Shown here piece after piece: positions 50,211 through 58,797 of a DNA stretch of 64,000 nt; positions within the stretch are counted from its first letter, which is position 1, and each line of letters starts with the position of its first letter. The DNA comes from an uncultured Spirochaetales bacterium. GTDB taxonomy: Bacteria; UBP6; UBA1177. The notes under the pieces were generated by a model. The model was not told the origin of the DNA, did no database searches, and saw nothing but the letters and a program-made list of their open reading frames with translations. Location: contig CAZVWR010000004.1 in the NCBI GenBank assembly GCA_964630905.1, positions 6,775 through 70,774 on the forward strand, read 5' to 3'. A program made the position numbers and the translations under genes.

Positions 50211-51479
50211 ATGGAGGAGACATTGAAAGTATTTAAGATTTACTTTCTCTCTCTGCTGCTTATTTTCGCTTTCCCGGTTTTAGCTCAGGAGAATGCCGGT
50301 GAAGGTGAGACAGAGCCTGAAAAATCAGTTTCGGAAGATACTGAGGATGATGTAGAGGAAGAAGAGGGTGAAGCAGAGAGCAAGGAAGAAAAACCTGCCG
50401 AAGCGAAACCTGAAGAGGTAAAGCCTGAAGAGGTAAAGCCTGCCGAAGTTAAGCCGGAACCCGTTGCGGAAACACCTGTGGCAACTCCGGAAGTAAGAGA
50501 AGAACCCAAGGTGGCAGTTAAAATCGAAGGCGAACCTGAAGGTGAAAAAGGTAAAGATGATGGTAAAGAAAAAGAGAACAAAAAGTTCAACATCAGCATC
50601 ATCAACGGTTTTTCACATGGGTTCGCAAAGGAAAGAAAATCTTTTTCCTATAATCTTACACTGGGAGCATCATATATGTTTCCGTGGCAGATAGCTTTTT
50701 CTGCGGATGTAGGTCTTAACGCTCTTTACAGATACGATCTTGATAATTCTATCCCGACAGAAGGCGGGTATGCAACTGATGAAAAGATCGATTCAGGGGT
50801 ATTTGACGGCACTCCGTTGAATCTGGGTCTTTCAAAAGCATTTCCTGTTGTATGGAATATAGGTGGAAATCTTGGCATCAGCGCAGGTCTTCCATTTACA
50901 TCAACTGAGCTCTGGGAGCAGTATAAGATTTACACTATGCTTACAGCAAGTCTCGGTTTTGCAAGACCCTTTAAAGTCGGAAAAGAAACTTCTGTTGTTC
51001 CGGCATTTAACTTTTCTTACACAAAAACATTTGCTAAATATGACTATGATACAGACCCTTATCAGAACACGATATCAAGCCCGATCAACGAACACACTTT
51101 TGTTCTGGGTTTGAATCTTTCTCTTGCTTACAAGGGGCTTAAGCTTGCCGTGAACGGTGGATATGTTATCTCGAGAAATTATTCAGTAACTTCAATGCCT
51201 GAAGATTGGTACGGTGACGGCGATCATCGTAAACAAGGAACTGTTTATCAGGATTGGAGTTATATTTTCAGTTTCGGAGCATCAATTTCATATTCTATTA
51301 AGGAATGGAGTTTCGGACTTGGCGTAAGAACCAATGCTCCGGAATATGACAGCGGCAACTATGTGGGATTTCCGACGGTTGCAGGTGATCCAGCGGTTGA
51401 CAACGGATCGGCGAACTACCCGTTCAAACCGAAATATACAAGAGTTTTTGCTAATATTGGCTATTCATACAGTTTCTAA
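50211..51479 (+). CDS. Outer-membrane beta-barrel protein with an acidic Glu/Pro/Lys-rich N-terminal region.
   Basis: Signal peptide, (KPEEV)-type low complexity, alternating amphipathic strands, and a terminal ...IGYSYSF. The start may be the TTG at 50223 after GGAGG. Confidence 0.55.
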   Translation: MEETLKVFKIYFLSLLLIFAFPVLAQENAGEGETEPEKSVSEDTEDDVEEEEGEAESKEEKPAEAKPEEVKPEEVKPAEVKPEPVAETPVATPEVREEPKVAVKIEGEPEGEKGKDDGKEKENKKFNISIINGFSHGFAKERKSFSYNLTLGASYMFPWQIAFSADVGLNALYRYDLDNSIPTEGGYATDEKIDSGVFDGTPLNLGLSKAFPVVWNIGGNLGISAGLPFTSTELWEQYKIYTMLTASLGFARPFKVGKETSVVPAFNFSYTKTFAKYDYDTDPYQNTISSPINEHTFVLGLNLSLAYKGLKLAVNGGYVISRNYSVTSMPEDWYGDGDHRKQGTVYQDWSYIFSFGASISYSIKEWSFGLGVRTNAPEYDSGNYVGFPTVAGDPAVDNGSANYPFKPKYTRVFANIGYSYSF

Positions 51480-51495
51480 TTAAGGAGGTTTTATT

Positions 51496-57158: not shown

Positions 57159-57195
57159 AATCTGCTGTGGATGTTGTTTATTAAAGGGAAAAGAC

Positions 57196-58797
57196 ATGAG
57201 AAAAATTCTTATCTGCTTTGCTGTATTTCTTTATTTTATTAATCTGTTTCCATCTCCTCTTACAGAAACTGTCGGTGCTATGGGAACGACAAATCCTTTC
57301 AACTCCAGAATATTTGCCCAGGGTGCGGAAGTCACATATTTTAATCCGGCACTTCTTACACTGATGGATAGAAGATTTTCATTGAATTTCTTTTACAGTT
57401 ATCAGAATCTTGATATTTCTCTTATGGATAAACCGGTTGGAACAGATGTTATCGGTGATGTTGATGAGGGGACAGGTATTTACGGTGCTACACAGCAGGG
57501 TACCGCTCCGCTGGAAACCAACCTTCCTTTTAAAACAAGGCCGACTGCAGATCTTGATGAAAGAGGAGGTCATTCAACTAAACAGGGTGAATTCTACGGA
57601 GCACTCGGACTTGTATTTCCTCTCTGGGAAGATTATCTTGCTCTTGGGTTTTATGGACTTATTCCGATAGGGAACCTGATGAAGCAGGATTCTTTTTTTG
57701 TTGATGAAAGAGAGGCAAATTTTTCTAATTCGCTTCACTATGAGCTTTATGATGACAGAATGAGCTCTTTCAATCTTTCGCTCGCACTTTCAGGCGGTTA
57801 TAAGTATGTTTTTGCAGGTGTAGGTGTAACTGCCACAGCGGAAGCGGTTATTAATTCGACAGTTTTCACTCCCGATGCAGGCAAGAACGAGAACAAGATA
57901 CATGCAGACACAACGATACAGGCAAAATTCACCCCTCATTTCGGACTTATAATCAAGCCGTGGAAGTTTATGAACATCGGCTTTACAGCGCATCTTGCTT
58001 CCAAAACAAATGTTGATACCCGCAACAAGATCACTTTCTGGTATATCGACAGAGAAAAAGAGGCGGAAATAAACACAAATAATCTTGTTGTTGCATACAG
58101 CTATAAACCGCTTTCTCTTTCACCCTCGATAGCCTTGACTGATTTTGAGGTAAACAAAGACCTTAAGCTCAGTGTTGGGTTTACGGCAATTTGGAGACAA
58201 TGGTCGAAGTATGTGAACAGATATAACGAAAAACCGGAAGACAATATTTTCTGGGACCCCCAGATAGAGGTTAAAGATAAAGAAGGCAACATTCAGAGTC
58301 TCGGTGGCTGGGTTTATGAGGAAGTAGACCGTTTCAAATGGAAGGATTCCTGGGAATTTGTTCTCGGAGCAACAGTGGAATATAAGGCATTTAAAGTCGG
58401 TCTTGATCTTGGGTATTTCATGACACCTGTTCCTGATCAGAAAGGACGTACAAATTATGTTGACAACAACAAGGTCAATTTAGCCGCAGGACTGAGTTAC
58501 ACATGGAATATCAAGGATATGAAGCTTGAAACCGGAATAAATTTTCAGACACACATAATGATCGAAAGGGAAACTGTTAAAGACGAGGGAGTGGAAAATT
58601 CAGTTGGTAAAGACGGCAAAGTGGTTGATGAATTTCCAGATTCAGAATGTGATCCATTCAATCCGGATGAAAATTGTGAAACTGGAAAGACAATGCCTGA
58701 GTCAGTCGGTTTTCAGACAAACAATCCGGGATATCCCGGTTATACTTCAAGTGGTCAGATCTTTTCCGGCGGACTCTGGTTCGCATTATATTTTTAG
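57196..58797 (+). CDS. FadL/TodX-family outer-membrane hydrophobic-compound channel.
   Basis: Signal peptide, the NPA motif ([10 protein letters not shown]) and a C-terminal GGLWFALYF. Confidence 0.6.

Follow-up and report, generated by a model that had tools for sequence, protein, structure and literature searches.

A giant metzincin-like lipoprotein and its putative outer-membrane barrel partner in an uncultured bacterium of the UBP6 lineage

We analysed a 64,000-nt stretch of the genome of an uncultured Spirochaetales bacterium (GTDB lineage UBP6, UBA1177; GenBank assembly GCA_964630905.1, contig CAZVWR010000004.1; hereafter the window) and found that a gene for a putative outer-membrane beta-barrel and the gene behind it, which encodes a lipoprotein of 1833 amino acids (aa) with a metzincin-type zinc motif (hereafter the giant), form an obligate, co-diverging pair. 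An initial annotation, made from the letters alone, had described the giant open reading frame (ORF) as flanked by two outer-membrane barrel genes. All three ORFs were confirmed at the coordinates given in Table 1. Both flanking genes are thus present; they do not have equivalent standing, since the upstream gene is an obligate partner of the giant whereas the downstream FadL-like gene is a separate unit conserved in a single clade.

Results

The barrel gene is an obligate partner of the giant gene

A homologue of the barrel gene was found directly upstream of the giant gene in 24/24 genome loci, including all 16 UBP6 loci, and the gap between the two genes is 12-22 nt in 23/24 loci and 94 nt in one. 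For distant relatives whose giants have 34-48% identity (L017-L021, L023 and L024), the barrel gene is the only invariant neighbour, and these distant upstream genes are homologous to the barrel gene of the window (phmmer E-values of 1e-48 to 2e-18, hmmsearch E-values of 2e-96 to 8e-29). The reverse search with the barrel profile found 28 metagenome loci, and a giant gene lies 17-28 nt behind the barrel gene in all of those with room downstream (26/26). Overall, the pairing was seen in 50/50 informative loci. In addition, the pairwise identities of the barrels followed those of the giants (r = 0.97; Mantel test, 0/2000) in a comparison that included same-genome paralogues, and in one genome with two giants (P0062 and P0065), each giant is paired with a barrel of its own. 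Taken together, these results show that the upstream barrel gene is the obligate, co-diverging partner of the giant.

The giant is a conserved, lipid-anchored protein

The possibility that the giant ORF is an assembly chimera, which the initial annotation had raised against its own reading, was rejected because collinear full-length homologues are present in many independent assemblies. A search of 5.8 billion proteins returned 65 collinear homologues of 1650-1830 aa with 34-96% identity, all from metagenome-assembled genomes (MAGs), and 16 loci turned up when species-representative genomes were scanned, several of them from UBP6_UBA1177/1196/1209 and the rest from rumen or digester MAGs. The zinc motif, the lipobox Cys and the entire reading frame are conserved in the 65 homologues. 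Conservation extends over the full chain and is highest in the N-terminal 700 residues, with variable stretches limited to aa 721-750, 1231-1290, 1351-1410 and 1681-1760. The signal peptide ends in ...VVMIAVS-C23, and Cys23 is invariant and followed by a conserved TTER.AVDK in all homologues, in agreement with the lipoprotein signal first proposed; the lipobox is a loose one, with A, V or L at position -3 among the homologues. Furthermore, 22 Cys residues are conserved and fall into even-numbered groups. Together, the lipobox Cys and the even-numbered Cys groups show the predicted product to be an extracytoplasmic, lipid-anchored protein of ~200 kDa.

Outside the catalytic core, the giant has no match in Pfam, NCBIfam, PDB sequences or PDB folds, and the initial statement that this part has no recognised domains holds across these four collections. 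The first ~160 residues of the N-terminal beta-rich region are the most conserved block of the superfamily described below. The Cys-rich region at aa 343-633 is the most confidently modelled part of the protein, with a predicted local distance difference test score (pLDDT) of ~90, and it has no solved structural relative. The C-terminal ~800 residues are well modelled in parts, and the last ~150 form a predicted helical bundle (pLDDT 85-90); no family or fold match was found for the C-terminal ~810 aa. One of the variable stretches (aa 1351-1410) is a six-Cys insertion restricted to close relatives of the window (gap fraction 0.81-0.90 and Cys conservation 0.03-0.08 among the homologues), and a similar insert is present in P0003. 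Within the giant gene lies an antisense ORF of 295 aa (51592-52479, minus strand), which is assumed to be a shadow ORF of the coding strand.

The catalytic core has a predicted metzincin fold

As first described, the ORF combines a lipoprotein signal peptide ending at Cys23 with a metzincin signature, which lies at aa 900-912 (HEMGHVVGLRHNF). The HExxHxxGxxH motif is invariant in 64/65 homologues; the sole exception, P0050, has HKMGH, with the catalytic Glu replaced, which could reflect an error in sequencing or an inactive variant. In the candidate Met-turn, M982 is invariant and lies 72 residues past the third His, at a point where the model has a pLDDT of only ~65.

When Pfam and NCBIfam were run on the whole giant, on four tiles of it and on distant relatives, the zinc helix alone was matched. 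On the whole giant, PF16313 (DUF4953) reached 23.3 bits versus a gathering score of 24.2, with model positions 13-36 of 316 aligned; a 506-aa piece scored 27.3 bits with this model, yet only positions 12-36 of 316 align. The peptidase models stayed below their thresholds (M43, 13.6 bits versus 23; M10, 15.1 versus 24; M12, 13.5-15 versus 22.5-27), as did TIGR03952 (metzin_BF0631 lipoprotein; 15.7 bits versus a cut-off of 208.1), the alignment of which covers aa 899-985. On these alignments and scores, the likeness to PF16313 and TIGR03952 is one of the zinc site and not of the domain. A search of PDB sequences with a profile of 20 homologues likewise returned nothing past the zinc motif. An M43-, M10- or M12-like assignment, for which the initial annotation had proposed a search, is not borne out: none of these family models reaches its threshold, and the giant falls into a large superfamily of its own.

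In a first structure prediction, which covered aa 743-1833, the zinc helix had a pLDDT of <50. Since aa 613-1024 form a single homology block in remote relatives, this tile had split the catalytic domain. A second model (aa 24-1200, 34 sequences) had a mean pLDDT of 72.4 and a predicted template modelling score (pTM) of 0.77, with ~86 pLDDT at the zinc helix. When this model was compared with known structures, the scores were 8.9 for EcxA, 8.3 for serralysin, 7.2-7.8 for MMP-9, -12, -2 and -20, 7.5 for snapalysin (123/134 residues, 2.7 Å), 7.1-7.2 for archaemetzincins and 7.0 for astacin; BMP1 and ADAMs scored lower. In the model, the first part of the catalytic domain (aa ~593-683) is made up of beta strands and a helix; a disordered stretch with a helical insert comes next (~688-865), and then the zinc helix, the candidate Met-turn and a C-terminal helix, so that an insert of ~180 aa parts the beta-sheet portion from the zinc helix. 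The domain is thus larger than the module of less than 15% of the protein that had been proposed, and it is split (~aa 590-1020). Taken together, the predicted catalytic fold, with a beta-sheet N-subdomain, an active-site helix and a C-terminal helix, is that of a metzincin, as the structure prediction called for in the initial annotation now indicates.

The giant belongs to a superfamily of its own

A profile of aa 1-1195 was searched exhaustively against 1.84 billion cluster representatives, which yielded 1601 proteins at E <= 1e-3, 880 at E <= 1e-10 and 276 at E <= 1e-30. Most members are 1200-1900 aa long and collinear with the N-terminal block and the aa 620-1155 block, and the superfamily comprises ~1600 clusters at 50% identity with a median length of 1368 aa. 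Among 138 full-length representatives, a lipobox-like signal is present in 117, HExxHxxGxxH in 137 and NF after the third His in 130. In these proteins Pfam matches only the zinc helix and NCBIfam nothing, the only named member is a hypothetical protein of a Myxococcota MAG, and a literature search on DUF4953, PF16313 and DUF5117/8 found nothing relevant. The elastase of F. psychrophilum was rejected as a relative; it is an unrelated gluzincin of 296 aa. By these profile matches, the giant is a member of a large, unnamed and uncharacterised superfamily of its own, composed mostly of predicted lipoproteins. At one further locus (L022, 2764-12398), two distant giant metzincin paralogues of 1751 and 1454 aa stand in tandem; the 374-aa beta-rich gene upstream of them shows no significant relationship with the barrel family (E = 0.022).

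The upstream protein is a putative outer-membrane barrel

The protein encoded upstream of the giant has a signal peptide (aa 1-25), an acidic, Pro-rich (E/K/P) low-complexity linker up to ~aa 125 and a beta domain (~aa 126-422) that ends in NIGYSYSF. The initial description of an acidic KPEEV-repeat barrel gene 16 nt upstream of the giant proved sound: the 15-nt tandem array is real, the gap is 16 nt and the product has barrel-type features. The linker varies freely in length and composition between homologues. The family has more than 70 members and no Pfam domain; F is the C-terminal residue in 73/74 members and Y stands at position -3 in 71/74 (Y-x-F), and a crude profile of the family shows ~12 amphipathic segments of alternating hydrophobicity. 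Matches to OMP_b-brl_2 and OMP_b-brl are weak (OMP_b-brl_2 in 7/32 members, best E-value of 1.6e-3). Among the same 32 members, DUF560 and TPR gave no match even at E <= 10, Toluene_X gave none, and PorP_SprF matched only one (E = 0.014), while the barrel profile searched against PDB sequences returned only low-complexity noise. These family searches give no support to a Slam-type or PorP-type identity. Judged by its signal peptide and aromatic C-terminal beta-signal, the upstream protein is a putative outer-membrane beta-barrel.

The pair is probably a sigma-54-dependent operon

The promoter account of the initial annotation was incomplete in that it missed a sigma-54-type element upstream of the barrel gene. 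In the 300 nt ahead of the barrel gene, 22/24 loci, among them all 7 distant ones, have a single copy of [CT]GG-N8-TTGC, with GTTTGGGACATGATTTGCT as a typical sequence (GG-N10-GC pattern); given what is established about RpoN promoters, we take this to be the sigma-54 -24/-12 pattern. Against a background of 0.053 occurrences per 330 nt, the binomial tail is 1e-26, a value subject to the caveat that these loci are not independent of one another. The element is also found upstream of the barrel gene in many metagenome loci (L027-L052). In four distant loci (L018, L019, L020 and L023), a gene with FHA and Sigma54_activat domains lies immediately upstream, and the window encodes a Sigma54_activat response regulator elsewhere (35229-36635); rpoN lies outside the window. 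A sigma-70-like site closer to the barrel gene (50139-50167) was set aside, because sites of this kind show no enrichment relative to shuffles and it is the sigma-54-type element that is conserved.

The giant starts 16 nt past the barrel stop codon and has a perfect AAGGAGG ribosome-binding site. The closing terminator noted at first is supported by a strong terminator-like hairpin at 57022-57043 (AAAGGGGGC-TTCG-GCCCCCTTT, then a T run), which starts 25 nt past the giant stop codon, and such a terminator follows the giant only and not the barrel gene. The separate promoter placed at 57130 fared less well: promoter-like sites overall are no commoner than in shuffles (27 observed versus 31.6), and this site is therefore a consensus match only. 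Taken together, these features suggest that the barrel gene and the giant gene probably form a two-gene operon under sigma-54 control.

Neighbouring genes and other features of the window

The FadL-like protein passes the Pfam Toluene_X/FadL model (PF03349) narrowly, with 30.4 bits versus a gathering score of 29.7 over aa 196-464, which upholds the channel proposed at first, if marginally; with the NCBIfam FadL model it scored 21.7 bits versus 585. A FadL-like gene follows the giant in the digester/sludge clade of the window (L002, L029-L031, L033, L034, L037 and L054) and was not found behind the giant in the rumen clade or in distant relatives. It was rejected as a member of the unit because it lies behind the strong terminator and is conserved only in the clade of the window. 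Three genes upstream of the pair, for a MacB/Lol/FtsEX-type ABC ATPase, an FtsX permease and a DUF3299-like protein, were assigned by Pfam, and their NCBIfam matches were all below cut-offs. They adjoin the pair throughout UBP6 in two gene orders. Since they were not found in L017-L024, they were rejected as part of the core and are treated as a lineage-specific neighbour; a link of these genes to lipoprotein handling is possible but unsupported.

In non-rumen relatives, a gene for an S8 subtilisin-type peptidase of ~520 aa lies behind the giant (L018, 15523-17471; L019, 15138-16682; L020, 15237-17192; L021, 15256-17280; L023, 15165-16766), and a small thioredoxin gene comes next in L018, L020 and L021, which suggests a larger extracytoplasmic proteolytic cluster in those relatives. 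In the window itself, collagen triple-helix repeats occur in three proteins (58807-59946, 5788-7401 and, on the minus strand, 3037-5568), one of which, an S8 subtilase of 843 aa, has a DUF4215 domain as well; three such proteins within one 64-kb stretch are unusual. Immediately upstream of the ABC genes (44005-46275), a 407-aa protein has a weak thioredoxin-like N-terminus, and a 348-aa protein of the same segment weakly matches Leptospira LIC_13355/LIC13354-type lipoprotein families. A type IV pilus/type II secretion-like set (29602-36635) contains two T2SSE ATPases, one with MshEN, and a T2SSF protein, with a PilS-like histidine kinase and a sigma-54-dependent response regulator behind it. 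The segment 21818-29408 carries genes for an OAD beta subunit, a carboxyl transferase and a methylmalonyl-CoA mutase (methylmalonyl-CoA/oxaloacetate decarboxylase type), which is consistent with a succinate/propionate-type anaerobe. At 11170-20984 there are four large co-directional ORFs, three of them (941, 720 and 620 aa) without a Pfam match and the fourth (918 aa) with an RCC1-like beta-propeller. Finally, a 559-aa protein (1357-3036, minus strand) has a PNGase F C-terminal domain (N-glycanase_C, E = 9e-21).

Table 1. Coordinates of the barrel-giant pair, its parts and its neighbours in the window.
Feature	Position	Strand	Remarks
MacB/Lol/FtsEX-type ABC ATPase gene	47250-47921	+	Pfam
FtsX permease gene	47918-49207	+	Pfam
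DUF3299-like protein gene	49209-50042	+	Pfam
Sigma-54-type -24/-12 element, TGGAAGATGTCTTGC	50087-50101	+	124 nt upstream of barrel start codon
Barrel gene	50211-51479	+	422 aa
15-nt tandem repeat coding the linker (K/A)PEEV units	50385-50459	+	Tandem Repeats Finder, 3.4-3.9 copies
Spacer between barrel and giant genes	51480-51495	+	16 nt, with AAGGAGG ribosome-binding site of the giant
Giant gene	51496-56997	+	1833 aa
Predicted lipoprotein signal peptide, lipobox ...AVS-C	51496-51564	+	Cys23 codon 51562-51564
N-terminal beta-rich domain(s), ~aa 24-335	51565-52500	+	
Cys-rich alpha/beta region, ~aa 343-633	52522-53394	+	10 conserved Cys
Predicted split metzincin catalytic domain, ~aa 590-1020	53260-54555	+	
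Zinc-binding motif HEMGHVVGLRH, aa 900-910	54193-54225	+	followed by NF
Met-turn candidate SVMDY, aa 980-984	54433-54447	+	S980, M982, Y984 invariant
C-terminal region, ~810 aa	54556-56994	+	mixed, then mainly helical
Lineage-specific Cys-rich insertion, aa 1351-1410	55546-55725	+	six Cys
Terminator-like hairpin and T run	57022-57051	+	9 bp, 6 GC, TTCG loop
Sigma-70-like promoter match ahead of FadL-like gene	57130-57158	+	TTGACA-17-TACATT, extended TG
FadL-like gene	57196-58797	+	533 aa

Discussion

We lean, with no more than modest confidence, towards a role in which the barrel docks or displays the lipid-anchored giant protease at the outer membrane, the two being encoded in what is probably a sigma-54-dependent two-gene operon. 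The barrel would be a small outer-membrane beta-barrel with a long, disordered, acidic/Pro-rich periplasmic extension, and the giant a ~200 kDa lipid-anchored zinc endopeptidase whose split metzincin core is set within ~1400 conserved, disulfide-rich residues. After export by Sec and lipidation, the giant would be transported to the outer membrane, where the dedicated barrel, as its docking or display partner, would retain the protease at the membrane and possibly expose it at the surface. The protease would then cleave protein substrates at the surface, by analogy with the way in which PorV and PorQ hold PorU and PorZ or Slam serves adjacent lipoproteins.

Several points weigh against this role. 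The giant has ~11 predicted disulfides and the barrel only ~295 residues, which disfavours the threading of an unfolded 200-kDa chain, and a giant that faces the periplasm is at least as likely as one displayed at the surface. Family searches show no similarity of the barrel to Slam/DUF560, FadL or PorV, and the C-terminus of the giant is helical and is not the beta-barrel handle of Slam cargo. Farther members of the superfamily (L025 and L026) have no upstream barrel gene, so the protease fold has no intrinsic need of a barrel. As for the enzyme itself, the Met-turn region was modelled at only ~65 pLDDT, the alignments were shallow (18-34 sequences), and we infer catalysis by the giant from conserved residues alone.

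A bolder version of the docking role, in which the giant and a barrel unrelated in sequence to Slam, BamA, LptD or PorV/PorQ would make up an undescribed lipoprotein-barrel machine, controlled by sigma-54/FHA signalling, for inserting a 200-kDa metzincin at the surface or displaying it there, is one we regard as doubtful but worth keeping in view. If true, it would be a new route of lipoprotein surface display in a candidate phylum (UBP6 and relatives), and it would give a functional handle on the ~1600 uncharacterised clusters of the superfamily.

Alternatively, the giant may be a periplasmic envelope-maintenance protease on the inner leaflet of the outer membrane, either BepA-like or engaged in processing the acidic extension of the barrel; the barrel would then serve the giant as a substrate, as a regulator or as the place where it is anchored. 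The large number of conserved disulfides suits a protein that folds in the periplasm and remains there, the N-terminal extension of the barrel is expected to be periplasmic and is highly variable, as a tether or a substrate might be, and the giant is conserved like a core gene. In addition, a Lol/MacB-type ABC system adjoins the pair in UBP6, and thioredoxin and S8 peptidase genes lie downstream in other lineages. However, 200 kDa is very large for the periplasm, and the giant has no homology to BepA/M48 or to known envelope proteases beyond the shared zincin fold; we consider such a role unlikely.

We think it quite improbable that the pair serves protein foraging, as a Sus-like enzyme and porin module in which a surface protease digests external protein and the barrel takes up the peptides; in some clades, the FadL-like channel and the ABC transporter would contribute to uptake as well. 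The hosts do inhabit anaerobic environments rich in protein (rumen, digesters and sludge), the barrel is tightly coupled to a hydrolase, and an S8 subtilisin-type peptidase in distant relatives or a FadL-like channel in the clade of the window lies behind the giant. Yet a copy number of 1-2 per genome and strong conservation over 1800 residues are more like those of a housekeeping envelope machine, uptake porins are not typically small barrels that carry a long low-complexity extension in the periplasm, sigma-54/FHA-type control is atypical of nutrient loci, and the ABC transporter belongs with the MacB/Lol exporters and not with importers. That the adjacency is meaningless, or that the giant serves a structural or adhesive purpose without catalysis and merely keeps a zincin-like motif, is hardly credible: one homologue does have HKMGH for HEMGH and the majority of the chain is non-catalytic, but the catalytic residues are invariant in 64/65 homologues and 137/138 superfamily representatives, and the pairing holds in 50/50 informative loci with co-divergence over 34-96% identity and between paralogues.

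To our knowledge, the surface delivery or retention of lipoproteins is settled for a few phyla only, through Slam, LptDE, the Bacteroidota export signal and the T9SS (type IX secretion system) attachment complexes. The locus described here is a clean, obligate pair of a private barrel and a giant lipoprotein protease, with a regulatory element, in an uncultured phylum, and it makes a specific hypothesis of a barrel-protease interaction testable. A zinc-helix match of ~25 residues is the sole current database label for the proteins of the superfamily, and for ~1400 conserved residues per protein, the confidently modelled Cys-rich region among them, there is no relative of solved structure. Should these proteins prove to be ordinary secreted proteases, the main value of the work would be better annotation.

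Like the metzincins (serralysins, matrixins, astacins, snapalysin, archaemetzincins and the EcxA type), the giant has HExxHxxGxxH and a conserved downstream Met. Unlike them, its catalytic domain has the ~180-aa insert, the third His is followed by N-F, and a typical catalytic domain is exceeded 7-10 times in size by the whole protein. The nearest sequence models are PF16313 (DUF4953, 'Met-zincin') and TIGR03952, which describe uncharacterised zinc-dependent metalloprotease lipoproteins and share with the giant the HExGHxxGLxHNF...SxMDY signature and the lipoprotein nature. Among very large zinc proteases, the pappalysins belong to M43 and PAPP-A has ~1600 aa, and SslE/YghJ is a giant metalloprotease lipoprotein. 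The giant is similar to both in being a very large secreted or anchored zinc protease with a small catalytic fraction, and to SslE also as a lipoprotein. It shares no accessory domains with either, and the M43 model remains below its gathering score; SslE is an M60-like gluzincin, exported by the type II system without a private barrel.

The FadL-like protein compares with the FadL/TodX/OmpP1 channels in its Toluene_X score, just above gathering, and its C-terminal Phe. It differs from them in that the score is marginal, and its gene is a separate transcription unit that is conserved with the pair in one clade only. T9SS attachment complexes (PorV-PorU and PorQ-PorZ) place large surface enzymes on dedicated small barrels (PMC5562754, PMC8545088). 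PorV itself resembles FadL, and in the clade of the window the giant is followed by a FadL-like gene; PorU, however, is a sortase of the cysteine-protease type whereas the giant is a predicted lipoprotein metzincin, and no T9SS genes were seen in the window.

In Slam/type XI secretion, a DUF560 barrel serves an adjacent surface lipoprotein (PMC5449769, PMC9090332, PMC8406197). As in Slam systems, an outer-membrane barrel gene is coupled to a lipoprotein gene and the pairs duplicate together. In contrast to Slam, the barrel of the window has neither DUF560 nor TPR and its N-terminus is of low complexity; in contrast to Slam cargo, the giant is disulfide-rich and has a helical C-terminus instead of an 8-stranded barrel, and its host is no proteobacterium. 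The giant is also far larger than any Slam cargo we know of. In its genetic logic, the pair thus resembles Slam-lipoprotein or PorV/PorQ-PorU/PorZ pairs, and by the family searches it appears to lie outside those families. The giant is best described as a metzincin with a private barrel partner and with a giant-lipoprotein architecture not described before, the mechanism and substrate of which we infer.

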